Assembly (NCBI GenBank): GCA_902778925.1
Contig: CACYZN010000021.1
Span: 3,847 to 67,846 of the forward strand
DNA length: 64,000 nucleotides
Origin: an uncultured Bacteroidota bacterium
Lineage (GTDB): Bacteria; Bacteroidota; Bacteroidia; Bacteroidales; P3
Direction: 5' to 3'
Positions 1,258-63,728 of the stretch are shown in pieces. Under the pieces are notes generated by a model that was not told the origin of the DNA, did no database searches, and was given only the letters and a program-made list of their open reading frames with translations. How positions within the stretch are numbered: position 1 is the first letter of the stretch; each line of letters begins with the position of its first letter. The position numbers and the translations under genes were made by a program.

Positions 1258-3624
1258 TTATTTGTTTTTGATTTCACGCAGACTGACGGCGAAGCCGCCG
1301 CAGGGTGCCATGTGGAGTTTAAGCTTGCTTTTGCTGGTGACGGTCTTCTTGGTGATAGTGTAGCCATAAGGGTTGTAGCCCTCGCTGGCGGCGAGGCCAG
1401 AGGCGTCCTTGGAGTCGCAGTAGAGGGTGGCCTCGTATTTGGTGCCGGGTTTCAGGAAGTCGAGCTTCACCTCCACATCGCGGGCGTTCTCGTCGGTGAC
1501 GCCGCCAATGTACCACACGTCGTGTGGCTTCGCTTGTTGAACGTCGAAGGTGGAAAGAGTGTCGGGTATGTTGTATACGAAGCGGGTGGCGCTGTTGAGC
1601 CCTCCCTGCTTGCCGTCGGGCAGCTGACTTACACCCTCGGCGGCCTTGTTGAGGGTCGCTGTCTTTGGGTGTCGGGCGGTCACGATATAGGCGCCGGGCT
1701 CGGCCATCAGGTAGAGGCTGGTGTCCCAGTCGACGGCCACGTCCTTGATGAACTGGAAGGCGTCCATGTAGGGCTCGTAGTGCTCGGGGAAGTCGGCAGC
1801 CATCTGCAAGGGTGAGTAGAAGGTGACGTATAGTGCCAGTTGGTTGCAGATGGTGATGTTCATCCTATTGCCTTTGGCCCAGGAGACGAACTTGCCCATG
1901 TCGGGCTCGAAGATGCCGGGGGTATAGTCCATAGGGCCGCCCTGCAGGCGGGTGAAGGGCAGGATAGTGGTGTGGCCGGGACGTATGCCGCCGCGGAACT
2001 CGGTGCCCATGGCGCTCTCGTTGCCAATCATGTTGGGCCAGGTGCGGCAGAGGCCGGTGGGGCGCACTGCCTCGTGGGCGTTGACCATGATGTGGTGCTT
2101 TGCGGCCTCGAGCACGGCGTAATGGTAGTGGTTGATGAGGGGCTGGCTGTAGTGGTGCTCGCCGTGGGGCACTATCTTACCCACGTAGCCGCTCTTTACT
2201 GCGTCGTAGCCATACTGGTTCATCAGGTTGTAGGCTTGCTCCATGTGGCGCTCGTAGTTGGTCGTGGCGGAGGAAGACTCGTGGTGCATGATGAGGCGCA
2301 GACCTTTCTGGTGGGCGTAGCGGTTCAGCGCGGGCAGGTCGAAGTCGGGGTAGGGGGTGACGAAGTCAAAGACGAAGTTCTTCTCCTTGCCGTACCAGTC
2401 CTCCCAGCCTATGTTCCAGCCTTCGATGAGGAGAGCGTCGAAACCGTTGGCGGCGGCGAAGTCTATGTATCGGCGCACGTTGTCGTTGTTGGCGGCATGG
2501 CGGCCGTGGGGCTTGCAGTTGGTGTAGTCGGTGGCAGACGGGGCCAGCGAGGGCGGGATGGCTGGGTCGCCCGGCAGGCGTACAGATGGGAAGTCGTTGG
2601 TGTAGGACCAGCAGTTCTTGTCGCTAATCATCTCCCACCACACGCCCATGTACTTCACCGGATGTATCCAGCTGACATCATGCAGCGCGCAGGGCTCGTT
2701 TAGGTTGAGGATAAGGCGCGAGCGGAGCACGTCGGTGGCAGAGGTGCAAACCTGTACCGTCCTCCACGGCGAGTAGCAGGGTGCTTGCAGCCGCCCCACA
2801 TAGCCTGTGGCGTCGGGTGTGAGGTGTACCCTGAGGGAGTATTGTTTTCCCGAACCGGTACCGACGCTGTCGATGTTGAGGTTCATGGTTGGGAAGTCGA
2901 GCACCGCGGCCTCGTGGATGTTGATATATAGGCCTTCGTTGGACTTCATCTGCAGGGCTGTCTGCACGCCGCTCTCGGAGAAGCTCTTCCAAGGCCATCC
3001 GCCGCCTTGCTGCGATTGCCAGTGCAGTCCCTTCACCTGGCTCAGTCGGCTCTCGGTGTAGTTAAACTCCTGGGTGTCGTAGTCGCCGGGGATCCACCAG
3101 GCTGTGTGGTCGCCCGCCATGCGGAATTCCGTGAGTTCGTCGGTGAGCCAGAAGTACACCAGCGAGTTCTCGACGGGCCATTCGTAGCGGAATCCCAATC
3201 CGTCGTCGTACAGGCGGAAGCGTATGAGCATCACCGTCGTCTTGTCGACGCGCTTGCCCTCGTGGTCGAGGTAGTGATCCTGTTCCAGGGTGACGCATAG
3301 CTCGTTGTAGTGGTTGCGGATATTGGCCTCTTCTCCCCATACGGGCTGCCACACTTCGTCGAAGGAGGTGTACCGTTGGTTGGCGATGCGGAAGCCGCTG
3401 GCGAGGTCGTTCTTGCGCCACTCGAGGGTGAAGCCCATCTGCGACGGGAGCACCACGGCGCTGCCGTCGTGCCGCAGCTCGTAGGTCGGCCGTCCGTCGT
3501 CGGCCAGCCAGAAGCGAGCCTGCAGGCGGCCGTCGGGGCTACGCAGCGATAGGGTGTCGGCCTCGGCGGCCGAGACCGAGAGGGCTATTGCCAGGAGGCA
3601 GAAGGCGGTAGTCAGTCTTTTCAT
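1258..3624 (-). CDS. Glycoside hydrolase family 97 alpha-glucosidase (SusB-like), secreted
   Basis: 788-aa ORF with signal peptide MKRLTTAFCLLAIALSVSAAEA. Its size and motifs such as IDFAAANGFDALLIEGWNIGWEDW resemble Bacteroides GH97 enzymes. It lies 4 nt upstream of deoD. Confidence 0.7.
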   Translation of the reverse strand: MKRLTTAFCLLAIALSVSAAEADTLSLRSPDGRLQARFWLADDGRPTYELRHDGSAVVLPSQMGFTLEWRKNDLASGFRIANQRYTSFDEVWQPVWGEEANIRNHYNELCVTLEQDHYLDHEGKRVDKTTVMLIRFRLYDDGLGFRYEWPVENSLVYFWLTDELTEFRMAGDHTAWWIPGDYDTQEFNYTESRLSQVKGLHWQSQQGGGWPWKSFSESGVQTALQMKSNEGLYINIHEAAVLDFPTMNLNIDSVGTGSGKQYSLRVHLTPDATGYVGRLQAPCYSPWRTVQVCTSATDVLRSRLILNLNEPCALHDVSWIHPVKYMGVWWEMISDKNCWSYTNDFPSVRLPGDPAIPPSLAPSATDYTNCKPHGRHAANNDNVRRYIDFAAANGFDALLIEGWNIGWEDWYGKEKNFVFDFVTPYPDFDLPALNRYAHQKGLRLIMHHESSSATTNYERHMEQAYNLMNQYGYDAVKSGYVGKIVPHGEHHYSQPLINHYHYAVLEAAKHHIMVNAHEAVRPTGLCRTWPNMIGNESAMGTEFRGGIRPGHTTILPFTRLQGGPMDYTPGIFEPDMGKFVSWAKGNRMNITICNQLALYVTFYSPLQMAADFPEHYEPYMDAFQFIKDVAVDWDTSLYLMAEPGAYIVTARHPKTATLNKAAEGVSQLPDGKQGGLNSATRFVYNIPDTLSTFDVQQAKPHDVWYIGGVTDENARDVEVKLDFLKPGTKYEATLYCDSKDASGLAASEGYNPYGYTITKKTVTSKSKLKLHMAPCGGFAVSLREIKNK

Positions 3625-3685
3625 ATATGTATGGCGTTTATCTGTTTAACAAAAAAAGAGGAAACGTTGCTTGTTTCCTCTTTCG

Positions 3686-3762
3686 TGGTGACTCCTGCAG
3701 GATTCAAACCTGCAACCTTCTGATCCGTAGTCAGATGCTCTATTCAGTTGAGCTAAGGAGCC
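3686..3762 (-). tRNA. tRNA-Arg (anticodon ACG), CCA encoded
   Basis: The reverse complement reads GGCTCCTTAGCTCAACTGAATAGAGCATCTGACTACGGATCAGAAGGTTGCAGGTTTGAATCCTGCAGGAGTCACCA. It folds as a cloverleaf: acceptor GGCTCCT/AGGAGTC, anticodon stem TCTGA/TCAGA with loop CTACGGA, and a GGTTTGAATCC T-arm. Confidence 0.9.
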
Positions 3763-3801
3763 AATCCTTGTTTCGGGCTTTCCTCTCCCCGAAAGCGAGT
3801 G

Positions 3802-3809
3802 CAAAAGTA
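3802..3809 (-). promoter_or_regulatory. Bacteroidota sigma-A -7 box (TACTTTTG) upstream of tRNA-Arg
   Basis: Plus strand CAAAAGTA is TAnnTTTG on the minus strand, about 40 nt upstream of the tRNA 5' end. Confidence 0.45.
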
Positions 3810-3914
3810 CGAACTTTTTTGATACCGACCAAATTATTTTTCAAATATTTTTCTGCACCCGTTATAGAGGTTTGATATGTAGTGCGTTGTGTGATGCCGA
3901 ATTTTTTGTCTTTC

Positions 3915-4433
3915 CTACTTTATTCCGTACACTTCGCGGTATAAAAGGTCTTTTATTTCGTTAAATTCGTCGTCGTCGAGTTCATATTTCGACATTATTA
4001 TCATCGGCACTGTGCGGTTGTCGTTGTGGTACGAGGGTTGCACGTAGGGCTGAGGGTTCTGGAAGAAGCCCATCGAGGCGTAGAACTCCACGCGGTGGTC
4101 GGCCTCTTCGGTGTCTGGGGGCTCCACTTCGAGCACCACTTGCTCTTGCTGTTGCGAGAGGAAGGTGAGGAATGCTGCTTTGCCAAGGCCTTGGTTGCGC
4201 AGTTCTTCTGCTACGGCGAAGTGCTCGACGTAGACTAGTTCGTCGAAGGTCCAGTAGGTGAGTATGCCTACGGGTTCGTCGCCGTTTTCGGCCACGAGGA
4301 AATGGAATTTGCCGGCATCGCGCTGCCGGAGACTACTGAAAGGGGGGCGTTCCTGTTCCGGGAATGCCTCTTCGAACAGCTCTTGCGCAAAGTGTGCGTG
4401 GTCGCTGTCGGCCAGTTTTGTAAATGTTATCAT
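3915..4433 (-). CDS. GNAT family N-acetyltransferase
   Basis: 172 aa. The acetyl-CoA binding motif region is VAEELRNQGLGKAAF. Its ATG overlaps the upstream stop (ATGA at 4430-4433). Confidence 0.8.
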   Translation of the reverse strand: MITFTKLADSDHAHFAQELFEEAFPEQERPPFSSLRQRDAGKFHFLVAENGDEPVGILTYWTFDELVYVEHFAVAEELRNQGLGKAAFLTFLSQQQEQVVLEVEPPDTEEADHRVEFYASMGFFQNPQPYVQPSYHNDNRTVPMIIMSKYELDDDEFNEIKDLLYREVYGIK

Positions 4434-5320
4434 ATCTTGAAGTTGTTCATTTCTATTCTAATGCCAAGCATGTGGTGCCATCCCCAGGCGGTGTAGCCTT
4501 TGAGGACGGTTTTGGTCTGGTAGCAGGTGTAGCCCACTTTGAAGGCTCCGATGCCGTTGACGCGGTAGCCGAGCAGCAGGCTGGAGAAGACGCCGTAGCC
4601 GATGCCGCCCTGCGGCGGGTTGTTTTCGTAGGCTGCCACCCCGGCGTCGGGGGTGCGGCCGTCCCAGCGGTCGAGTATGGAGTAGGTCTGGCCGCCGATC
4701 TGCATGATGTTGTCTTGCACCTGGGTGTTGACGAGTGTGGCGCCGAGGTCGAGCTCGAGTTCGAGGGTGGGGGAGAGTGGCACGGTGCGGGTGAGTGCGA
4801 GGTCGATGTTGATGCGTTTCTCGCGGCCCATGATTTCGCAGGGTATGTACTGGTTGGTGCCGGGCAGGCTGGCGCCGTTGGCGGCGCTGAGGTTGAAGCC
4901 GCCGATGGCTTGCAGGCGTGCCAGGTCGAAGCGCAGCAGCCATCCGAAGCCCGAGGCGTAGTCGTAGCGCAGGCCGACCCCTATCTGGTACGATGTGCGG
5001 TAGTACATGCGCTGCGAGTATTCGACTACCTGCAGCTGGTTGTAGCTGCCTATGGCCGAGGGCGAGATGAGGCCTTGCCCCACCAGGTTGTTCCAGATGG
5101 CGGTGCCGTAGGTGTTGCTGTGCAGCACGCGGTTTATGGTGTTGACGTTTTCCGGGCTGCCGTTGTAGAAGTTGGCTGTGATGTTGCTGGCCCAGTAGGC
5201 GCCAGCGTTGGCAAACACCGAGAGGCCTGTGTAGTGCGTACTACTCGGAGGCTTGCCGTCGTCGGCGATGGCCGATGTGGCAAGCAGCAGTGCGGTGAGT
5301 GTGAGTACGGTGTGTTTCAA
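4430..5320 (-). CDS. Putative outer-membrane beta-barrel protein (hypothetical), TTG start
   Basis: The only start giving a signal peptide is TTG 5320-5318 (LKHTVLTLTALLLATSAIADD). It overlaps the sigma-factor stop by 2 nt. The protein is rich in alternating aromatic/Gly beta-strand-like segments. The upstream part of track ORF 4430..5686 is Arg/Pro-rich junk. Confidence 0.55.
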   Translation of the reverse strand: MKHTVLTLTALLLATSAIADDGKPPSSTHYTGLSVFANAGAYWASNITANFYNGSPENVNTINRVLHSNTYGTAIWNNLVGQGLISPSAIGSYNQLQVVEYSQRMYYRTSYQIGVGLRYDYASGFGWLLRFDLARLQAIGGFNLSAANGASLPGTNQYIPCEIMGREKRINIDLALTRTVPLSPTLELELDLGATLVNTQVQDNIMQIGGQTYSILDRWDGRTPDAGVAAYENNPPQGGIGYGVFSSLLLGYRVNGIGAFKVGYTCYQTKTVLKGYTAWGWHHMLGIRIEMNNFKI

Positions 5321-7141: not shown

Positions 7142-7382
7142 CACATTATTCCGCATCCCCGCCGGCCGCCGATGTTTAAAATATCAACATTTATTCAACA
7201 CCTCCGCACTCCGCTGCCCCCGCCGCCCCCCGTCGCCGTCGGCCCGGCACCCCCTGCGGTGCCAGAAATGTGCCTTTCTTAATACTATTTAACTTAAACC
7301 TTAAAGGATTTAGGATTTCGGTCGGATTTTGACCCCTTCGTAACCGGTTGATACCCAGCTCTGCCAGCCTTCTTCTCCGGAT

Positions 7383-7483
7383 CCCCTCCGGTATTTCTTA
7401 TGTACTTCTTATGTATTTCTTATGTATTTCTTATGTTTTAAACATAAATACAACATAAGATATACATAAGAACGACATAAGAG
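7383..7483. repeat. AT-rich palindromic element built from 11-bp units, copy A (TTCTTATGTA family)
   Basis: CCCCTCCGG then TATTTCTTATGTACTTCTTATGTATTTCTTATGTATTTCTTATGTTTTAAACATAAATACAACATAAGATATACATAAGAACGACATAAGAGA. It is near-identical to the copies at 39291-39383, 63583-63680 and (inverted) 50175-50278. Confidence 0.9.
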
Positions 7484-7514: not shown

Positions 7515-7522
7515 TATCTTTG
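7515..7522 (+). promoter_or_regulatory. -7 box TATCTTTG for nfo
   Basis: TAnnTTTG match 46 nt upstream of ATG 7568. Confidence 0.45.
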
Positions 7523-7567: not shown

Positions 7568-8407
7568 ATGACGAAATACATCGGCGCCCATGTGAGCGCA
7601 TCGGGGGGCGTGGGCAACGCCATACTGAACGCCGAGGCCATCGGGGCCAACGCCTTTGCCTTGTTTACCAGAAACCAGCGTTCGTGGGTGAGCAAACCGC
7701 TGCCGCAGCTGGAGATCGACGGCTTCCGGGCCCTGCTCGTCGACCGCGGCTTCAGTCCCAAATACGTGCTGCCGCACGACAGCTACCTCATCAACCTCGG
7801 CTCGCCCGACGAGGAGACGCTGCAAAAGAGCCGCGCCGCCTTCCTCGACGAGATGACGCGCGCCCAGCAGCTGGGCCTCACCATGCTCAACTTCCACCCA
7901 GGCAGCCACCTCAACAAGATAAGCGAGGAGGAATGCCTCGACCAGATAGCCCGCGAGGTGAACCTGGCCCTCAGCAAGACCGAGGGAGTGACGGCGGTCA
8001 TCGAGAACACTGCCGGACAAGGCACCAACCTCGGCTGGAAGTTCGAGCACATCGCCCGCATCATAGCCGGCATAGACGACAAAGCCAGGGTGGGCGTCTG
8101 CATCGACACCTGCCACACCCTCGCTGCCGGCTACGACCTGAGCACCGAGATGGGCTACATGTTCTGCTTCGAGGAGTTCGACCGCCTGATAGGGCAGCAG
8201 TACCTCCGCGCCATCCACCTCAACGACAGCAAGAAAAACGCCGGCAGCCATGTGGACCGTCACGAGGTGCTGGGCGAGGGCTTCCTCGGCAAAGCCTTCT
8301 TCAGCCGTTTCATGCACGACCCCCGCTTCGACGACATGCCCATCATCCTCGAGACCCCCGACCCCATGCGCTGGGCCGAGGAAATCAAATGGCTGCGTTC
8401 ACTATGA
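7568..8407 (+). CDS. nfo: Endonuclease IV (AP endonuclease)
   Basis: [14 protein letters not shown]...NFHPGSH...VIENTAGQG...[13 protein letters not shown]...IHLNDSK...[11 protein letters not shown] are canonical Nfo metal-binding motifs. The upstream part of the track ORF is not coding. Confidence 0.9.
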
Positions 8408-19368: not shown

Positions 19369-19376
19369 CAAAAATA
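19369..19376 (-). promoter_or_regulatory. -7 box TATTTTTG for the TetR/efflux operon
   Basis: Plus strand CAAAAATA sits directly after the yajC terminator, about 70 nt upstream of ATG 19296. Confidence 0.45.
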
Positions 19377-19413
19377 CAAAAAAAACTCCGGAAACCAACA
19401 TAGTTTCCGGAGT
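19377..19413 (-). terminator. Rho-independent terminator of yajC
   Basis: Stem ACTCCGGAAAC (19385-19395) pairs with GTTTCCGGAGT (19403-19413). On the minus strand it is followed by a run of eight T. Confidence 0.8.
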
Positions 19414-19450
19414 TTTGTCTGTTAAATAATCTTAAAGCCTGCCTAGGCCA

Positions 19451-19732
19451 TTATTTGCGCTCTGGTATTGGACTTAATGTGGCTATTTGGACTTTGATTT
19501 TAACACCCGGAGCTACTTCTACGGTGGCATAGGCGCCGTCGCGACTTACAAATCTTACATGTATCCCGCCGGCCGTCATCAACTCGTCTCCGGCCTTTAG
19601 CGAGTCGCGGTATGCGGCTTCTTTTTTGGTCTTGTCGCTCTGTGGTTTAATCAGGAAGAGGTAAAACACGGCTATCATTGCCACCACCATTATGGCGGTC
19701 TTCCATCCATTTGCAATATCGAGTAGTATCAT
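19451..19732 (-). CDS. yajC: Preprotein translocase subunit YajC
   Basis: 93 aa with a single TM (AIMVVAMIAVFYLFLIKPQ), then LKAGDELMTAGGIHVRFVS. Confidence 0.85.
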   Translation of the reverse strand: MILLDIANGWKTAIMVVAMIAVFYLFLIKPQSDKTKKEAAYRDSLKAGDELMTAGGIHVRFVSRDGAYATVEVAPGVKIKVQIATLSPIPERK

Positions 19733-21437: not shown

Positions 21438-22214
21438 TTATTTCCCTTGAAATTCGTACTTGCCTTTCTCGAGGAAAGCCTTCATGCCTTGCTTCTGGTC
21501 CTCGGTGAGGAAGCAGCGGCCAAAGATGACGCTCTCGTTCTGGATAGCGGCATCGGCATCCATGTCGTACTCGTCGTTGATGCACAGCTTGGCTGCCTTG
21601 ACGGCGAGCGGGGCGTTGGCGGCAATCTGGTTGGCCAGTTCCATGGCCTTGTCCATCAGCTCGGCCTGAGGCACCACGGCGTTGACGAGCCCAATGCGCA
21701 TGGCCTCGTCGGCTTTGATAGCCTTGCCGGTGTATATGAGTTGCTTGGCTATGCCCATGCCCACCAGTCGGGCCAGACGCACGGTGCCGCTGAAGCCGGG
21801 TATGATGCCGAGTCCCACCTCGGGCTGGCCGAAGCGGGCGTTGTCCGAGCAGATGCGAATGTCGCAGGCCATGGCCAGCTCGCAGCCACCGCCGAGGGCG
21901 AAGCCGTTGACGGCGGCGATGACGGGCACGTGCATGGTCTCTATCTTGCGGAAAACGGCGGCGCCGCGGGAGCCGAAGGCTTGTCCTTCAAGCATGCTGA
22001 GGTTGGCCATCTCGCTGATGTCGGCACCGGCCACGAAGCTCTTCTCGCCGTCACCGGTGATGATGAGGCAACGGAACTTGTTGCAGTCGAAGTGGCTGAT
22101 GTAGTCGTCCATCTCTTTGAGGATGGCGCTGTTGAGGGCGTTGAGGCTCTTGGGGGCGCTGATGGTCAGGATGGCCACCGTGCCACGTTCTTCGGTTTTG
22201 AGGTATTGGTACAT
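21438..22214 (-). CDS. crt: Enoyl-CoA hydratase (crotonase)
   Basis: 258 aa. NALNS, FVAGADISEM, VIAAVNGFALGGGCELAMACDIR and FGQPEVGLGIIPG are crotonase-fold signatures. Confidence 0.9.
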   Translation of the reverse strand: MYQYLKTEERGTVAILTISAPKSLNALNSAILKEMDDYISHFDCNKFRCLIITGDGEKSFVAGADISEMANLSMLEGQAFGSRGAAVFRKIETMHVPVIAAVNGFALGGGCELAMACDIRICSDNARFGQPEVGLGIIPGFSGTVRLARLVGMGIAKQLIYTGKAIKADEAMRIGLVNAVVPQAELMDKAMELANQIAANAPLAVKAAKLCINDEYDMDADAAIQNESVIFGRCFLTEDQKQGMKAFLEKGKYEFQGK

Positions 22215-22217
22215 GGT

Positions 22218-24395
22218 TTACTTTGCTACTATGAGTTTGCGAGCCACCTGGCTGTCGGCGCTGCGGAACACCACGGTGTAGTGGCCGGCGGCGAGGCGGG
22301 CGGTGTTGATGTTGTAGACGATGGTGCCCTGGGCGTCGAGCGACGAGGTGTGCACGGTGCGGCCCATGGCGTCGACGATGCTGACGGAGTAGGTCTGGCC
22401 GTCCTTAAGGTCGATCTGCATGCTGGCGCGGTCGGTGGCAGGGTTGGGGTAGAACTGGCCGAAGCCCTGTTCTATGGCGGCCTCGTCGATGCCGGCCAAC
22501 GGACGCTGGGTGCTGCTGTCAGCGGTAGCCCAGTCGCTGCCGAAGGTGAAGGTGATGTCTTCCATGGCCATCGGCATGGTGTCGTAGTCGAAGAACGAGC
22601 TGTCGAACACTATGTTGGTATCGGCAATGGTGCTGTATTGGAAGTTGTAGTAGCCACCCTGGCCTGCAGTCATGGGCTTGGTGATGGTCTTGCCGTTGTT
22701 GCTGGTGGCGCTGATGTAGTAGTCCACATTGACCACTGTGTCGGCCAAAAGCGGGATGGCGCCGTAGAAGCGGTTGTTGTTGGCGGCGAGGCTGACGGTA
22801 TGCCATGTGGTGTCGGGGCCGAAGGGCATGCGCCACATCACTTCGGCGTGGGCGATGCCGCTTTGGTTGGTGATGATGGCGCTGACGGGCAGCGATGCCA
22901 CGTTGCCGCCGGTATTGTAGTGGCCATATATGTTCTTATGCAGTATGCGGATGGGGTTCTCGGCGGGAATCTGCTTGGTGACGCAGTGGATGGCGCCGCC
23001 CGAGCCGTCGAAGGTGCGCACGTCGACCGGATAGATTGTGTAGCCGGGGTAGGCCTGATGGATGGCATCCATGTTGGCGCGGTCCCAGGCGGCCGAAGGC
23101 TCGCCGTTGACGACTTTGGAGAAGCAGGGCTGCAGTATGACGTTGTTCACGAACGTGTGGTTGGAGTAGGTGCGTGTGAACTGGCTATCGTACTCATCCT
23201 GGCTCTCGAAGTTGCCGCCGTTGTTGGTCGAGGGGAAGGGCAGGGTGGCCATGGTGTAGTAGTTGCGGCCGAAGACGCTCTGGTAGGAGCAGAGGGAGTC
23301 GATGTTGCGGGCGCCGGTCTGGTAGTCGTCCCACGACGAGTAGTCGTCGGGCATGACCGAGAAGACGAAGCCGTTCTCGTCGTAGGCGTCGGCATAGAGG
23401 TCTATGTGGCCGGTACCGCCGTCGTACTGGTAGGCGGGCAGTATGTAGGTGGCGCGCTGGCCTATGAGCGATTGCAGGGCCGCCTTCACCTGGCTCTGGT
23501 TGAGTGGTGTGACATGTTTGTAGTTGAGCGAGCTGATGTTGCGTCCGTTCCAGGTGAGCTGGCCGTACTGGTCGGCGTTGTTCGAGTAGAGGGCGTCGCT
23601 GGAGATGACCATGCCAGCGCCGTCGACCAGGCAGTTGCCGCCTTCCCACTCGATGTTGGTCTGCCAGTTGGGGATGCCTTTCTGCCACTGTATGATGGAG
23701 GGCAGCGAGTCGTCGAGGGCGCGACCGGGGTAGTAGGTGAAGTCGAGCATGCCGACCGAGTCTTGGTCGCCATAGTAGAAGCAGATGGGACCGCAGTCGC
23801 GGTACCAGAACGAGTTGCCGGGGCCGTAGAGGAATTTCACGTTGTCGTGGCGCAGGCCCATGCGCTCGAGGGTGCGGAGCACGATGGCCGAGTCGGAGGG
23901 ACGCTCTACGCGCACCCATGCCTCGGCACCGCCCAGCTGTATGCCGTCCATGAGGTAGAAGAAGACACGGCCGAAGGACGAGGTGGTGTCCATCTTGGCT
24001 ATGTAGTTGCCCATGCCGCGGTTTTGCCATCTGCCGTGCACGTACTCGTAGTATTCGGCATAGCCGTTGACCATGGGGTCGGCCGACCATGTGTAGCTGT
24101 TTTCGTGGCCGGGGACGGAATAGCTGTAGGAGGGTGTCACGACGATGGCCTGCACCTCTTCCCACTCGCCGGGGAACCACACGCGGTCTTCGGGCAGGCT
24201 TTTGGCGCCGCCCGCTTTGGCCATTTGCGGCTGGCCGAGGGGTATGTCGGTCTCGAGGTGGTGTTTGGACACGTCGCGTTTCTGCACTTGCTGGCGGAAG
24301 CTGCGTTGCAGCTCTTCGCGCGAAAGCTGTTCGCTTTGTGCCATGGTGCCGAGGCTCAGGGCCAGGGCTGCCAGTATGACGAGGGTCTTTTTCAT
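22218..24395 (-). CDS. Agmatine deiminase / Porphyromonas-type peptidylarginine deiminase family protein with T9SS type-A C-terminal sorting domain
   Basis: 725 aa with a signal peptide. The guanidino-modifying motifs are FWYRDCGPICF, EGGNCLVDGAGMV, GTGHIDLYADA and GGAIHCVTKQIP. The C-terminus is FYPNPATDRASMQIDL...GHYTVVFRS...KLIVAK. Confidence 0.75.
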   Translation of the reverse strand: MKKTLVILAALALSLGTMAQSEQLSREELQRSFRQQVQKRDVSKHHLETDIPLGQPQMAKAGGAKSLPEDRVWFPGEWEEVQAIVVTPSYSYSVPGHENSYTWSADPMVNGYAEYYEYVHGRWQNRGMGNYIAKMDTTSSFGRVFFYLMDGIQLGGAEAWVRVERPSDSAIVLRTLERMGLRHDNVKFLYGPGNSFWYRDCGPICFYYGDQDSVGMLDFTYYPGRALDDSLPSIIQWQKGIPNWQTNIEWEGGNCLVDGAGMVISSDALYSNNADQYGQLTWNGRNISSLNYKHVTPLNQSQVKAALQSLIGQRATYILPAYQYDGGTGHIDLYADAYDENGFVFSVMPDDYSSWDDYQTGARNIDSLCSYQSVFGRNYYTMATLPFPSTNNGGNFESQDEYDSQFTRTYSNHTFVNNVILQPCFSKVVNGEPSAAWDRANMDAIHQAYPGYTIYPVDVRTFDGSGGAIHCVTKQIPAENPIRILHKNIYGHYNTGGNVASLPVSAIITNQSGIAHAEVMWRMPFGPDTTWHTVSLAANNNRFYGAIPLLADTVVNVDYYISATSNNGKTITKPMTAGQGGYYNFQYSTIADTNIVFDSSFFDYDTMPMAMEDITFTFGSDWATADSSTQRPLAGIDEAAIEQGFGQFYPNPATDRASMQIDLKDGQTYSVSIVDAMGRTVHTSSLDAQGTIVYNINTARLAAGHYTVVFRSADSQVARKLIVAK

Positions 24396-24422
24396 TGTGT
24401 TTCTGTATTCGAAGGTGTTGTA

Positions 24423-25295
24423 TTAGCGTTTCTTGAGGCTCAGTATCTCGCGGGCTTCGTCGCTGGTGGCGATGGGGCGGCCGAGGAGTTTGGCCATGCG
24501 CACCACCTTGTCGACCAGCTCGCCGTTGCTCTTGGCCAGCACGCCGCGTTCGAGGTAGAGGTTGTCTTCGAAGCCCACGCGCACGTTGCCGCCCATGACG
24601 ATGGCGGGAGCGGCCAGTGTGAAGGCGTTGCGGCCGATGCCGGTGGCGGTCCAGGTGCTGCCGGCGGGTATGTTCTTCACCATCCACACCAGATTGTCGA
24701 CCGAGGCCGAGGCGCAGCCGAGCACGCCGAGCACGAAGTTGAACTGCATGGGCACCAGGGGCAGGGGCTGGCCGTCGGGGCCGGCTACGCCGAAGGCGCT
24801 GGGCACCTGGCCTTTGCGGGCCATGTGGACTATGGTCTCAAGGTGTCCCATCTCGAAGCACTCGTACTCGGGCTTGATGCCTTTCTCGATCATACGCTTG
24901 CCGAAGGCGCGCATGGTGGGCATGGTGTTGTCGAAGATGTCGTCGCCAAAGTTGCAGGTGCCGCAGTCGAGGGTGGCCATCTCGGGCACGGGGGTGGTGT
25001 TGGTCGAGTCCAGTCGCTCGTCGGGCGTCATGCCCACGGCACCGCCGGTCGAGGGGATAAGTATCACGTTGGGGCACTCTTTCAGTATGGCCTCGGTGCA
25101 CTCCTGGAAGCGCACGTGGCTCTGGGTGGGCGTGCCGTCGTCTTCGCGCACGTGCAGGTGCACGATGGCGGCGCCGGCGTCGACGGCGCTCTTGGCTTCG
25201 CGCACTATCTCTTCCACGGTGTAGGGCACGTTGGGGTTCTGCTCTTTGGTTACTTCGGCGCCGCAGATGGCGGCGGTGATTATCAGTTTCTCCAT
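24423..25295 (-). CDS. Beta-keto acid cleavage enzyme (BKACE/DUF849; 3-keto-5-aminohexanoate cleavage enzyme-like)
   Basis: ATG 25295 gives MEKLIITAAICGAEVTKEQNPNVPYTVEEIVREAKSAVDAGAAIVHLHVREDDGTPT, a typical BKACE N-terminus. Confidence 0.8.
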   Translation of the reverse strand: MEKLIITAAICGAEVTKEQNPNVPYTVEEIVREAKSAVDAGAAIVHLHVREDDGTPTQSHVRFQECTEAILKECPNVILIPSTGGAVGMTPDERLDSTNTTPVPEMATLDCGTCNFGDDIFDNTMPTMRAFGKRMIEKGIKPEYECFEMGHLETIVHMARKGQVPSAFGVAGPDGQPLPLVPMQFNFVLGVLGCASASVDNLVWMVKNIPAGSTWTATGIGRNAFTLAAPAIVMGGNVRVGFEDNLYLERGVLAKSNGELVDKVVRMAKLLGRPIATSDEAREILSLKKR

Positions 25296-25345
25296 GTTGT
25301 TGTATGTTTTATTATTACTAATCCGAACAATTTTCAATCAAGCGG

Positions 25346-25353
25346 CAAAAATA
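25346..25353 (-). promoter_or_regulatory. -7 box TATTTTTG for the BKACE operon
   Basis: Plus strand CAAAAATA lies about 50 nt upstream of ATG 25295. Confidence 0.45.
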
Positions 25354-25430
25354 CAAAAAAAAATACAATCGCAATAAAAAAAGTACTCCCCGGCCATCAA
25401 AAAGCCCTCGCGCCCCCCTCGGCACCCCGT

Positions 25431-25575
25431 CCCCTCCGCTTCCGGTGGCCTCGTTGTACTATTGTTGTACTATTGTTGTACTATCGTTGTACTATTGAAA
25501 ACATAAGAACGATAGTACAACGATAGTACAACAATAGTACAACGATAGTACAACGACCGGAGGAGGGGAAGGGGC
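25431..25575. repeat. AT-rich palindromic element built from 11-bp units, variant copy B (TYGTTGTACTA family)
   Basis: Left arm 25451-25495 is (T[C/T]GTTGTACTA)x4. Right arm 25512-25556 is its reverse complement with 44 of 45 positions matching. The 16-nt loop is TGAAAACATAAGAACG. CCGG and CCCCTCC/GGAGGGG brackets flank the arms. Confidence 0.9.
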
Positions 25576-39272: not shown

Positions 39273-39423
39273 CTCCCCTCCGCTTCCCCTCCGGTAGTTC
39301 TTATGTACTTCTTATGTATTTCTTATGTATTTCTTATGTTTTAAACATAAATACAACATAAGAAATACATAAGAACGACATAGGGCGGGGAAGGGGTGGA
39401 AAACGGGGGCGTGGAGAGTGGGT
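39273..39423. repeat. AT-rich palindromic element built from 11-bp units, copy C, with C-rich left and G-rich right flanks
   Basis: CTCCCCTCCGCTTCCCCTCCGG, then a TTCTTATGTA-unit palindrome, then GGGCGGGGAAGGGGTGGAAAACGGGGGCGTGGAGAGTGGG. Confidence 0.9.
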
Positions 39424-39492
39424 AACAGGGTGGCTGTTGAAAAAAGTTGTGAAAAAAATACGAGAAAAATCATATATATAAAGAAAAAGTTG

Positions 39493-39500
39493 TATCTTTG
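39493..39500 (+). promoter_or_regulatory. -7 box TATCTTTG for the T9SS propeller protein gene
   Basis: TAnnTTTG match 54 nt upstream of ATG 39554. Confidence 0.45.
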
Positions 39501-42740: not shown

Positions 42741-42769
42741 GTAAAATAAAAGAATACATAAATATATTA

Positions 42770-42800
42770 CTATAGTACCTATTGCTCCTATAGTACCTAT
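42770..42800. repeat. 13-bp direct repeat CTATAGTACCTAT x2 upstream of tyrS
   Basis: Copies lie at 42770-42782 and 42788-42800. Each contains the 10-bp palindrome TACTATAGTA or most of it. Confidence 0.7.
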
Positions 42801-42812
42801 AATACACCTTAA

Positions 42813-46142: not shown

Positions 46143-47479
46143 ATAGCTTGTGAGTAAATATCCTTTCGGACCCGTAGTCCCTGCAGCAGTCCACGCAGGG
46201 TGAGGTAGACCATGAATGCCATCCACAGTATGTTGTTCCACACGTGCTCGTCGTCGGTGCCATAGTAGTATTTCAAGCCGTAGTATACCGCAAAGAAAGC
46301 GGCAGTGGCCACAAACATGGCGTTGCGCATGGTGCGGGTGGCTGTGGCGCCGATGAAGATGCCGTCGAAGAGAAATGCCGCAAAGCCGCAGACGGGTATG
46401 ACGAGCACCCAGGTCATGTAGTTTCCGGCGGCGGCAATGACGTCCTGCTGGTCGGTGAAGATATGCAGGAACTGGTTGCCGAAGGCTGCGTACAGGCCTG
46501 TGAAGACCACCGTCAGCGCCATACCCCACATGATAAGTAGGCGCACGGCGAGCTTCAGGTGCCGTTGTTGTTTGGCACCTATGTGGCGGCCCACGAGGCT
46601 CTCGCCTGCATAGGCGAAGCCGTCCATGATATAGCTGAAGAGGGTGAAGAACTGCAGCAGTAGGGCGTCGACGGCCAGTATCTGGTCGCTGATGTGGCTC
46701 GAGGCCGCAGTGATGAAGGTGAACACCCCCGAGAGGCACAGTGTGCGCAGGAAGATGTCGCCGTTCACCTTGAAGAAGCGTCGCATCTCGTCCCAGTGCA
46801 GTGCCTCCTTGAAAAGTGAAAGGTGAAAGGTGAAAGGAGAGAAGTTCTTGTCACGGCGGAGACGTCGGCGCAGGAAGAGAATGCCCAGGACAAGGCCTGT
46901 GTAGTTGGCCAGCACAGTTCCGAGGGCCACTCCGAAGATGTCCCATTTCAGCACAATTACGAAAAGCAGCGACAGAGCAATATTGACGCAGTTCAGGGCT
47001 ATGGCTATCCACATGGGTGTCTTCGAGTCCTGCATGCCTATGAACCACCCCTTGATGGCGTAGAGCCCCAGGGTGGCTGGTGCCGCCCAGATGCGCACGA
47101 AGAAGTAGGTCAGTGCGAGGCCCAGCACATTGCTGCTGCCCTCAAAGATATAGGGTACAGCCAGCGATATGGGCCATTGCAGCGCTATGAGCAGCACGGC
47201 TATGGAGAGGGCGATGGCACAGGCGCGAATCAGTATCTTCACGGCCTCGTCCCATCGTTCGGCGCCGAAAGCCTGGGCGGTGAAGCCGCTGGTGCCCATG
47301 CGCAGGAATCCGAAGTTCCAGTAGATGAGGTTGAATATCTGTGTGCCGATGGCTATGGCGCCTATGTGGTCGCTCGACAGATGTCCCACAATGGCCATGT
47401 CCACCATGCCGAGCAGCGGCACGGTGATGTTGGTCACTATGTTGGGCAACGCCAGCCCCAGTATGCGCCTATTCATCAA
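46139..47479 (-). CDS. MATE family efflux transporter
   Basis: 446 aa. The N-terminus is MMNRRILGLALPNIVTNITVPLLGMVDMAIVGHL. The topology is 12 TM helices. Confidence 0.85.
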   Translation of the reverse strand: MMNRRILGLALPNIVTNITVPLLGMVDMAIVGHLSSDHIGAIAIGTQIFNLIYWNFGFLRMGTSGFTAQAFGAERWDEAVKILIRACAIALSIAVLLIALQWPISLAVPYIFEGSSNVLGLALTYFFVRIWAAPATLGLYAIKGWFIGMQDSKTPMWIAIALNCVNIALSLLFVIVLKWDIFGVALGTVLANYTGLVLGILFLRRRLRRDKNFSPFTFHLSLFKEALHWDEMRRFFKVNGDIFLRTLCLSGVFTFITAASSHISDQILAVDALLLQFFTLFSYIMDGFAYAGESLVGRHIGAKQQRHLKLAVRLLIMWGMALTVVFTGLYAAFGNQFLHIFTDQQDVIAAAGNYMTWVLVIPVCGFAAFLFDGIFIGATATRTMRNAMFVATAAFFAVYYGLKYYYGTDDEHVWNNILWMAFMVYLTLRGLLQGLRVRKDIYSQAI

Positions 47480-50014: not shown

Positions 50015-50078
50015 CACAAAAAACTCAATACATGTAATAATTCTAAGTTCTAAGTGCTAAATTCTAAGTGCTGAGTCT

Positions 50079-50162
50079 CACCTTTCACCTTTCACCTTTC
50101 ACCTTTCACCTCACACCTCTCCACTCTCCACTCTCCACTCTCCACTCTCACCTCTCCACTCC
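50079..50162. repeat. 84-nt tract of twelve 7-nt units: (CACCTTT)x4, CACCTCA, CACCTCT, (CCACTCT)x4, CACCTCT, CCACTCC
   Basis: Counted directly from the sequence. The tract is pyrimidine-only except for A and abuts palindromic copy D. Confidence 0.9.
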
Positions 50163-50174
50163 GAGCCATCCTCT

Positions 50175-50278
50175 CCGGCCGTTCTTATGTCGTTCTTATG
50201 TATATCTTATGTCGTATTTATGTTTAAAACATAAGAAATACATAAGAAATACATAAGAAGTACATAAGAACTACCGGG
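50175..50278. repeat. AT-rich palindromic element built from 11-bp units, copy D (inverted relative to copies A, C and E)
   Basis: The reverse complement reads CCGGTAGTTCTTATGTACTTCTTATGTATTTCTTATGTATTTCTTATGTTTTAAACATAAATACGACATAAGATATACATAAGAACGACATAAGAACGGCCGG. Confidence 0.9.
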
Positions 50279-50505
50279 ATAGAAAGTGGTGAAAAACCGG
50301 GGTTTTTGGGTGGAATGTTAAAATAGTGTTAAAAAAAGGTGGCTTTTAGTTAAAATTATGTTATGCTGGCCAGCTTGGCGCCCTTCAATCTTTTTACTTT
50401 TAACTTCCATTTTTTAACTTTCCCGCCCTCTTGGTGCGCAATAATTGCGGGGATGTGTCGTTACTAAAAAGTCAAAAAACAGAACGAGGAAATTATAGTT
50501 TAGCG

Positions 50506-61455: not shown

Positions 61456-61463
61456 AATTATTT

Positions 61464-61498
61464 CAATTCTCAATTATCAATTATCAATTTTCAATTAC
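61464..61498. repeat. (CAATTNT)x5 heptamer tract filling the gyrB-pepE spacer
   Basis: CAATTCT CAATTAT CAATTAT CAATTTT CAATTAC, read directly. Confidence 0.85.
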
Positions 61499-63474: not shown

Positions 63475-63482
63475 CAAAGATA
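63475..63482 (-). promoter_or_regulatory. -7 box TATCTTTG for gyrB
   Basis: Plus strand CAAAGATA lies 32 nt upstream of ATG 63443. Confidence 0.45.
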
Positions 63483-63577
63483 CAACCTTTTTTTCAATTG
63501 GCAGTGCTTTTTTTTGAGCCATGTTTCAACATTTTTTCAACCACCTTCACCCCGTCCTCACCTCTATCGCTCCCCAT

Positions 63578-63728
63578 CCCCTCCGGTAGTTCTTATGTAC
63601 TTCTTATGTATTTCTTATGTATTTCTTATGTTTTAAACATAAATACAACATAAGAAATACATAAGAAATACATAAGAACGGCAGGACCGGAACCGGTGGG
63701 GAACGGTAGGGGTGGCAGGGTGGCGGGC
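63578..63728. repeat. AT-rich palindromic element built from 11-bp units, copy E, with a G-quadruplex-type right flank
   Basis: CCCCTCCGG, then the TTCTTATGTA-unit palindrome (the right arm has one extra ATACATAAGAA unit), then GGCAGGACCGGAACCGGTGGGGAACGGTAGGGGTGGCAGGGTGGCGGGC. Confidence 0.9.

Follow-up and report, generated by a model that had tools for sequence, protein, structure and literature searches.

The 64,000-nucleotide stretch analyzed here (contig CACYZN010000021.1, positions 3,847 to 67,846; hereafter the window) comes from an uncultured bacterium of the order Bacteroidales. It hosts, in the spacer between moxR and a gene for a T9SS protein, a palindrome composed of 11-bp units (positions 39273 to ~39433). 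The initial annotation of this DNA had treated this palindrome as the type copy of an element present at five places, and all five sequences were found where it had put them and read as it had described. We rebuilt the gene map of the window by combining a codon log-odds caller with the public gene calls and Pfam hits of overlapping contigs. Gene calls for most of the window came from public contigs whose GyrB, MoxR, and GT2 proteins are identical, and the caller, trained on the Pfam-supported genes, recovered these as well as the untrained region at 17-27 kb, whose genes lie on the minus strand, as had been assumed before. A 1359-aa open reading frame (ORF) at 21447-25526 was rejected as spurious, i.e., as a product of calling ORFs by length only on DNA of 57% GC.

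The resulting map contains 49 gene junctions, of which 5 are divergent, 4 are convergent, and 40 are co-directional (the last class had earlier been put at roughly 50). Each of the five divergent junctions (GT2/nfo, BKACE/OmpA-caspase, moxR/T9SS protein, DUF6029-OMP/nadE, and gyrB/anmK) hosts exactly one element and the other 44 junctions host none, so that the rebuilt map agrees with the annotation for the divergent and the four convergent junctions alike. Six co-directional gaps of at least 130 bp are without the element and have an ordinary appearance, with a terminator hairpin and an AT-rich promoter. The five elements comprise four near-identical palindromes, which we refer to as family A, and one twin, family B.

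This positional rule extends beyond the window to other genomes and other unit families. An unbiased detector, based on self-identity at an 11-base offset, placed all arrays that it found, in the window as well as in related loci, in divergent gaps. Reading of nine non-redundant loci revealed elements in 18 of 24 divergent junctions and no element in ~155 other junctions. In seven non-redundant loci, divergent spacers make up 31% of the intergenic bases, yet they contain all 10 elements detected by strict criteria (p = 9e-6) and all 14 counted by reading (p = 9e-8). In addition, it is the start of the gene that adjoins the element for 43 of 46 independent flanking genes (58% expected; p = 9e-8). 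The divergent bias, first noticed within the window, thus holds when position is tabulated against gene orientation in relatives, other unit families included. An origin by inversion between elements was ruled out, because inversion would leave elements at convergent junctions too, and none are found there.

Anatomy of the palindromes in the window

The elements are palindromes of 100-190 bp made of 11-bp units, and they display two tiers. The inner tier, which forms the hairpin, contains 3-5 near-identical units per arm around a short asymmetric center. The outer tier adds 2-5 degenerate, 11-bp-phased units per side; those of the left side are C-rich and those of the right side G-rich (i.e., G-rich when read outward). 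In this genome, the family A unit is TTCTTATGTAT and the family B unit is GTTGTACTATY. Allowing at most one mismatch, we found 28 occurrences of TTCTTATGTA in the window, against 1.6 expected and a highest shuffle value of 5; 24 of them are in the four A copies, 1 is in the loop of B, and 3 are isolated one-mismatch matches within genes. TRF reported a period of 11 with ~4 copies per arm, and an inverted-repeat finder returned the five elements as the longest short-loop hairpins of the window. The four A copies, aligned with the copy at 50175 inverted, have asymmetries in common, and they are therefore copies of one oriented sequence.

The phasing is also present in the outer tier. Taken over 17 outer flanks, an 11-base offset gives a self-identity of 0.45, which none of 2000 shuffles reached, against 0.29-0.39 at other offsets, and 16 of the 17 flanks, read outward, have more G than C (~55% G versus 15% C). 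A survey of tandem arrays in 203 kb of non-redundant sequence from this clade uncovered 11 arrays with a period of 11 and 7 with a period of 7, and 0-1 for each other period from 5 to 24. In family A, the inner tier is bounded by the conserved CCCCTCCGG and CCGGAGGGG, beyond which degenerate units of a similar kind follow; the flanking CCGG, a palindrome in its own right, is conserved on both sides as part of the element. Several families combine a conserved core with a variable linker (8+3 in A, ~6+5 in P, and 7+4 in L095). More specifically, the 8-mer TTCTTATG is constant in family A, and the 3-nt linker is variable (at least 12 independent loci).

In the type copy, the left outer tier (39273-39294) consists of two C-rich 11-bp units, CTCCCCTCCG and CTTCCCCTCCGG, which are G-rich outward, on the minus strand. 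The inner core (39295-39382, plus strand) comprises a left arm of TAG and four TTCTTATGTAN units, the asymmetric center TTTTAAACATAAATAC, and a right arm of ACATAAGAA units. The right outer tier (39383-39433) is formed by the degenerate G-rich 11-bp units GAAGGGGTGGA, AAACGGGGGCG, TGGAGAGTGGG, and TAACAGGGTGG, and it thus runs past position 39423, where the element had previously been ended. As single-stranded DNA, positions 39273-39400 fold with -33 kcal/mol (z -9.1), and the copy contains the third least stable 80-bp duplex of the window. The core lacks 19 bp at its right end in this strain; the missing stretch is present in six other strains with contigs across that point. The type copy is thus a deletion variant.

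The family A copy at the GT2/nfo junction (7369-7482, plus strand) retains its left outer tier and core, and a 64-bp deletion relative to L083 has removed its whole right outer tier, so that the nfo promoter abuts the core. This promoter consists of TTTG, 19 nt, and then TATCTTTG at 7515-7522, with the start of nfo at 7568 (and not at ~7498, as annotated initially); the arm of the copy spans about -38 to -90 of the promoter. In the copy at the gyrB/anmK junction (63540-63727, plus strand; core 63577-63691), the best stem spans 35 bp, with 97% complementarity and an 8-nt loop, and both outer tiers, one C-rich and one G-rich, are present. At the DUF6029-OMP/nadE junction, the copy is inverted (50075-50315, minus strand; core 50175-50277) and has a G-rich right flank; its left outer flank contains the 7-bp arrays TCACCTT x5 and CTCTCCA x6, which together with TTCTAAG x4 fill positions 50041-50161. 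The family B element at the BKACE/OmpA junction (25413-25575) has arms of GTTGTACTATY units, 45 nt long and 98% complementary, C-rich and G-rich outer tiers, and a fold of -51.4 kcal/mol (z -15.6). Its 16-nt loop contains one unit of the type found in A and in family J (see below), AACATAAGAAC.

Single-strand folds of the elements range from -23 to -51 kcal/mol in the window and reach -65 kcal/mol in L091, with z values of -6.5 to -17. The most stable fold has a stem of 20-35 bp and an 8-nt loop, in place of the single-base center that had been proposed. Judged from the sequence only, the stems of 20-56 bp and loops of 3-16 nt are those of a cruciform-forming inverted repeat. When the 80-bp duplexes of the 64 kb are ordered from the least stable, the A cores rank 1, 2, 3, and 5, and B ranks 11.

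Exact TAnnTTTG boxes are found outside the element on 6 of 10 sides in the window and face outward, and the earlier statement that the element lies between outward-facing boxes is correct wherever boxes were found. Among them are the Bacteroidetes-type -7 boxes TATCTTTG of the T9SS-protein gene (39493-39500, plus strand) and of gyrB (63475-63482, minus strand). The distance of the box is 31-242 bp in the window, measured from the element coordinates of the initial annotation, and 71-202 bp in family J, measured from the last inner unit. Since the -7 boxes sit outside the element and at variable distance, the element does not carry promoters, and we ruled out this role. At the centers of the A copies (7432-7446, 39335-39349, 63627-63641, and 50219-50233), there are two overlapping opposed boxes, TATGTTTT and TATGTTTA, each one mismatch off the TAnnTTTG -7 consensus, and the loop of B contains TATGTTTT (25498-25505). 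No -33 TTTG occurs upstream of these central boxes in the five window elements.

Unit families in other genomes and variation among strains

A metagenome scan with three consecutive units as the query yielded 64 matches of three kinds, namely A copies at new loci, a further family (J), and unrelated arrays. Family J was found on 25 contigs and has the inner units GTTCTTATGTT and GTTCTAAGGTT and the outer-unit pattern GNNANGGNGTT. All 19 of its left neighbors lie on the minus strand, and 15 of its 17 right neighbors lie on the plus strand; after removal of duplicate flanks, the start of ~28 of 29 flanking genes adjoins the element. Conservation in family J falls outward unit by unit (84, 83, 74, and 49%, with a background near 40%), which is a gradient with no step. 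None of the A or J elements among the 64 matches has arms separated by a gene, and all of those not cut by a contig end are compact palindromes.

Relatives were reached via GyrB (95-98% identical) and the T9SS protein (41-51% identical), and they display the same architecture with other units, all of 11 bp and all in divergent spacers. There are at least nine unit families, each with an 11-bp unit. Those of the relatives include TACCAACTCCT (L084, L085, and L087), GATCAACGCCT (L089, direct only), GTTGTCCGSTT (L091), nnTATAGAGnn (L095, direct only), GTTCTTCAGTA (L102 and L103), and CTGTTCTACGG (L101, at 3 of 3 divergent junctions). Palindromes of the outer tier only occur in L085 and L102; in the latter, it is the CorA/dnaA palindrome that has outer-type units only. 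Different species host different families at comparable junctions (upstream of dnaA, upstream of gyrB, next to the DUF6029 gene, and between moxR and the T9SS-protein gene). Thus, at comparable junctions the architecture (i.e., 11-bp phasing, symmetry in most copies, and two tiers) is retained while the sequence turns over.

A second B copy is represented by its right arm at the start of a 106-kb contig (L005, positions 1-54), 118 bp upstream of groES (Cpn10). Therefore, B is multi-copy too, and contigs tend to break at the elements. A comparison of the 20-bp A center with 185,579 species genomes gave four chance matches only (in Mycoplasma, Clostridia, and an unrelated Bacteroidales coding region); this collection thus lacks the species or, at the least, its element.

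In L101 (3255-4096) and L102 (1173-2066), the long CorA/dnaA spacers contain the DnaA-box-like sequences GGTGGATAAC and GTTATCAACA beside the phased element, and oriC is therefore probably located there. Direct arrays of GATTCTTATGT are present on ERZ808 contigs (L013, L019, L027, L035, L037, L041, L048, L049, L051, L056, L058, L064, L070, and L071) of an organism with a GC content of 43-51%. They stand beside other tandem arrays, several of them with 11-bp units (ATATCTCCAGC, GGATACTTATA, and GTATAAATGCT), and wherever the flanking genes are co-directional, the array lies in that gap and points as the genes do. Given this co-directional placement, an orientation that follows the genes, and a different host organism, the GATTCTTATGT arrays were set aside as candidate relatives; they are a separate repeat system. 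Two IMG/VR phage contigs with a GC content of 29% (L098, ~3460-3660, and L100, ~1780-2040) have inverted blocks of 11-bp ACTATAGT-type repeats that look like a replication origin.

The strain comparison had been proposed in the initial annotation as a search for presence or absence and for target-site duplications, and it uncovered neither an empty allele nor a duplication in the spanning contigs. At the moxR junction, the element is present in all seven contigs that span the site (window included), and four further contigs end within it; at the gyrB locus, it is present in four of four (window included), and at the GT2 junction likewise in every spanning contig. No duplicated insertion site and no empty site were found among the 4-7 strains with contigs spanning each locus, and an empty site of the CCYCCGGRGG type is absent from all fetched loci. 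The strains differ by whole-unit insertions or deletions and by small deletions. At the moxR junction, for example, L073 has one extra 11-bp unit, L081 a 17-bp insertion, L076 a 61-bp deletion, and the window the 19-bp deletion.

In family A, the left arm and the center are invariant across at least 12 independent loci, and the linkers of the right arm vary (CGAC, ATAC, or GTAC; A or T). Identical alternative bases segregate both among strains at one locus and between loci. We read these shared variant bases as copying between elements, although short-read assemblers may mix repeat copies. In family J, a given gene flank may be joined via the element to different partners in different contigs (L015, L017, and L046; L026, L033, and L054; L031 and L061), which is either rearrangement at elements, with the divergent orientation preserved, or chimeric assembly across the repeat.

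Apart from 11 bp, the only array period that recurs in this clade is 7 bp. In the window, 7-bp tandem arrays also occur within the MatE reading frame (46809-46840, TGAAAGG x4) and in the 44-bp gap between gyrB and an S51 peptidase gene, which TCAATTA x5 fills (61461-61497). At the latter place, one strain has an EcoRV-like endonuclease gene and a D12-class methyltransferase gene inserted (L008, 2945-4676). Repeats of 9 bp (CTATAGTAC, 42763-42805) stand in the co-directional gap upstream of tyrS, right after a terminator-like hairpin. A 493-bp co-directional gap contains a terminator-like hairpin and a 93-codon minus-strand ORF with a coding-like score (19376-19422 and 19451-19732).

Comparison with known elements and competing explanations

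The element class appears to be undescribed, as the initial annotation had suggested. We found no description of it in the literature, and plasmids, phages, and IMG/VR contigs gave no relevant similarity to the element. The only window match above the gathering score in Rfam 15 is a tRNA (3689-3762), and a permissive Rfam comparison of the spacer returned only generic miRNA hairpins at sub-threshold scores (18-35 bits, with thresholds of 60-200). To our knowledge, all well-studied families of small bacterial palindromes, such as repetitive extragenic palindromes (REPs), REPINs, and MITEs (miniature inverted-repeat transposable elements), sit at gene ends or are spread randomly. The present elements resemble REPs, bacterial interspersed mosaic elements (BIMEs), and REPINs in being short, extragenic, hairpin-forming, interspersed, and vertically inherited, with several species-specific families per genome; for those elements, an interaction with topoisomerases and nucleoid proteins has been proposed. 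The placement, however, is close to the reverse of that in E. coli, where ~60% of REPs lie between convergent, ~40% between tandem, and ~1% between divergent genes (bioRxiv 10.64898/2026.03.23.713779). REPs are imperfect palindromes of 20-40 bp with a GTAG or CGTC tag at the 5' end, whereas the arms here are direct arrays of 11-bp units, and GTAG-like motifs in the outer units have the opposite polarity to the REP tag (5'-CTAC...GTAG-3'). A REPIN is a pair of REPs in inverted orientation whose ends are conserved and whose spacer varies, and REPINs are scattered at random through extragenic space (PMC3116915). In the present elements, it is the center that is conserved best, and the ends are fuzzy.

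No REP-associated tyrosine transposase (RAYT) was seen in the gene calls of the 64-kb window, for which domain searches covered all but the stretch at 17-28 kb. The sole Y1_Tnp gene seen in relatives (L085, 3996-4532) is flanked by GC-rich hairpins unrelated to the elements. The locus (3697-4605) is a textbook REP-RAYT arrangement, with an IS200/RAYT-like protein of 178 aa encoded between perfect GC-rich hairpin doublets that start with GTAG, and the sequence of these doublets is absent from the window and all other loci. Given that its flanking hairpins are unrelated and unique to the locus, this transposase was ruled out as the mobilizer. The element is not a classical MITE or REPIN either, because its ends are fuzzy, its center is conserved, and no duplicated insertion site, empty site, or autonomous partner is found in the contigs compared.

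The nearest described element in the order is BrickBuilt, a MITE of P. gingivalis with short terminal inverted repeats, in which a leader and a tail enclose 23-nt direct repeats, and for which duplicated insertion sites as well as filled and empty sites have been demonstrated (PMC4596501). It is likewise a Bacteroidales element, intergenic only, near promoters, and strain-variable in the number of tandem sub-repeats, but it has no palindrome of arrays, no reported divergent-junction rule, and no sequence similarity to the present element. Iterons, known from rolling-circle and plasmid origins, provide a second parallel. RepB of pMV158 binds three 11-bp direct repeats, in an iteron array next to a hairpin (PMC9943647), and the one-helical-turn direct repeats next to or forming a hairpin, with a conserved core and a variable linker, recur here. 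The present elements differ from iterons in being chromosomal, multi-copy, symmetric in both arms, and placed between promoters with no adjacent rep gene. Promoter regions are also known to contain cruciform-forming inverted repeats and superhelically destabilized sites; the inverted repeats surveyed in E. coli are short (at least 8 bp), individual, and mostly terminators (PMC6060812). They share with our elements a short-loop inverted repeat under negative supercoiling, with the AT-rich core here being the easiest place for local melting, but they do not form a dispersed family.

Interspersed imperfect palindromes of 100-200 bp, of which BOX is modular, are also represented by the Correia, ERIC, and BOX elements; these, however, occupy transcribed regions or 3' ends and have defined ends and target sites. 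We know of no 11-bp phasing and no divergent-junction specificity in them. An intrinsic (bidirectional) terminator was ruled out, since the elements are upstream of both genes and have no T-run after the stem; ordinary terminators were found in the co-directional and convergent gaps. An invertible promoter (inverton), in which inverted repeats would enclose a promoter segment of 100-400 bp near a recombinase gene, was ruled out as well, given that the arms abut with a loop of only 1-16 nt and the promoters are outside.

Collectively, we lean toward the view, held tentatively and with somewhat less than even confidence, that the palindrome belongs to a class of interspersed DNA palindromes found across a clade of uncultured rumen Bacteroidales, and that this class acts as a DNA-level structural module. 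The class would reside in the spacer, presumably untranscribed, between back-to-back promoters, and it would act on the DNA itself and not via RNA or protein coding. Divergent transcription would load this spacer with negative supercoils. The core may then extrude as a cruciform, or its one-turn-spaced sites on a single helix face may bind an oligomerizing protein, and by either route the element would buffer or insulate both promoters. A unit of 11 bp would match the helical repeat expected for DNA underwound by ~5%. The copies would be kept alike, as is shown in part, by whole-unit slippage and by gene conversion between elements, strongest at or initiated from the center, with the conserved outer tiers serving as homology; cut-and-paste transposition would then be unnecessary.

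A number of observations weigh against this view. The arms are 80-97% complementary overall (80-90% for the full arms of family A), and the right-arm variants of A are not matched by compensating changes in the left arm, which is invariant; this speaks against a perfect cruciform being under strong selection. A number of families, such as L091 and the P type, are not AT-rich, some being GC-rich, and easy melting is therefore not universal. The cruciform or supercoil sink that had first been suggested is compatible with the data, given the least stable duplexes and strong hairpins, with the non-AT-rich families and imperfect arms counting against it. One-armed elements occur at three loci (two in L089 and one in L095). 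The element is next to a gene 3' end at three loci; one family J element comes after an MltG-like gene, at its 3' end, and on two family A contigs a gene 3' end faces the element. Moreover, 6 of the 24 divergent junctions are element-free, as are the orthologous MFS/4HBT spacers in L093 and L095, so that divergent promoters do not need the element. The occupancy itself is based on ~250 kb of metagenome contigs from ~nine genomes. As to copying between elements, two of the variant contigs end within the element, and short-read assembly may have mixed the bases.

A stronger version, which we regard as rather unlikely, would make the palindrome a host-maintained chromosome-architecture element at essentially every divergent promoter pair, absorbing or partitioning negative supercoils. 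It would do so by extrusion of a cruciform or another non-B structure, or by wrapping an oligomeric protein, for which underwound DNA offers an 11-bp repeat, and in function it would mirror the REP/BIME elements found where convergent genes end. Its two-tier, symmetric, 11-bp architecture would be conserved, and gene conversion initiated at the center would leave its sequence free to turn over.

The main rival is a selfish palindrome confined to untranscribed DNA, which is possible, if somewhat doubtful. Such a non-autonomous, REPIN- or MITE-like repeat would have no host function and would be copied by an unseen enzyme or by ordinary recombination. It would survive only in divergent spacers, as the sole sizeable untranscribed DNA of compact genomes, where negative supercoiling would favor the hairpin form needed for insertion, and new copies may land in the centers of resident palindromes. 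The multi-copy, species-specific families with near-identical members within a genome are reminiscent of REPIN populations (PMC3116915), and elements are gained or lost between species at orthologous junctions. Old degenerate outer units around young identical inner units fit nested insertion, as do the A/J-type unit in the loop of B and the outer-tier-only palindromes of L085 and L102. The conserved ends of family A, CCCCTCCGG and CCGGAGGGG, and the Y1 transposase gene in a relative are also in its favor, and the exceptions at gene 3' ends imply no absolute need for two promoters. However, the only such transposase has unrelated hairpins that occur nowhere else, the spanning contigs yielded no duplicated or empty site, and the 64 metagenome matches include no arms separated around a gene. 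A conserved center with fuzzy ends is the reverse of what terminal-inverted-repeat elements and REPINs display (PMC3116915). In addition, the six co-directional gaps of at least 130 bp in the window are empty, and 75-100% of divergent junctions are occupied, by one element each. Of the initial idea of a MITE- or REP-like palindrome, the classical form thus falls and a looser selfish palindrome remains.

The exact 11-bp period in every family and in the outer tier could also reflect an iteron-like array of recognition sites for a sequence-specific protein (nucleoid-associated or a regulator), spaced at 11 bp on one helix face and symmetric, although we consider this improbable. The initial annotation had pointed in this direction with regulators of the OmpR/PhoB type. 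An operator of such a regulon is not supported, given that the flanking genes are unrelated (gyrB, nfo, nadE, moxR, groES, and dnaA, among others), placement is independent of the gene, there are two unit types in one genome, and the -7 box lies at anything from 31 to 242 bp. The idea of one-turn-spaced sites, on the other hand, gains support from the constancy of the 8-mer TTCTTATG next to a variable 3-nt linker; the core-plus-linker units of the P type and L095 are of the same kind. Arm lengths vary independently, single-arm versions exist, the units are oriented mirror-symmetrically relative to each promoter, and the arm of the copy at 7383 is at about -38 to -90 of the nfo promoter. Against such an array, the units differ completely within one genome (A versus B) and between close species, which would require several proteins or fast co-evolution, and near-identity over 75-100 bp, non-core positions included, exceeds the needs of binding sites. 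The variable promoter distance and the lack of a common function among flanking genes also count against it, and no candidate protein was identified.

We find it very hard to credit that the element is a two-way barrier to transcripts reading into the spacer (e.g., antisense transcripts). The RNA of such transcripts would be C-rich, because the outer flanks are G-rich on the outward strand; a C-rich, G-poor, Rho-loading-like segment would thus be followed by a long hairpin, consistent with the G-rich flanks of 16 of 17 arms (~55% G versus 15% C) and the strong core hairpin. Nevertheless, there is no U-tract after the hairpin, the 11-bp phasing and the dispersed-repeat behavior are left unexplained, and the idea is a matter of deduction throughout. 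Finally, a metagenome assembly artefact or chance low-complexity sequence, to which the many contigs ending within the element and the J flanks joined to different partners might point, is essentially refuted, because the element also lies well within long contigs that differ at the strain level and stem from independent samples and assemblers, and because unit counts are far above those of shuffles.

Biological significance

Small interspersed palindromes (REPs, REPINs, and MITEs) are a classic unsettled theme of bacterial genome biology. As a class that occupies most spacers between divergent promoters of a genome, the present elements offer a natural system for studying how bacteria handle negative supercoiling between divergent genes, and also how an architecture is kept while the repeat sequence is replaced between species. 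In practical terms, the elements break metagenome assemblies, as seen from the many contigs with an end in one of them. Rearrangements that leave operon orientation intact may be mediated by the elements, and they mark promoter regions in uncultured, abundant rumen bacteria.

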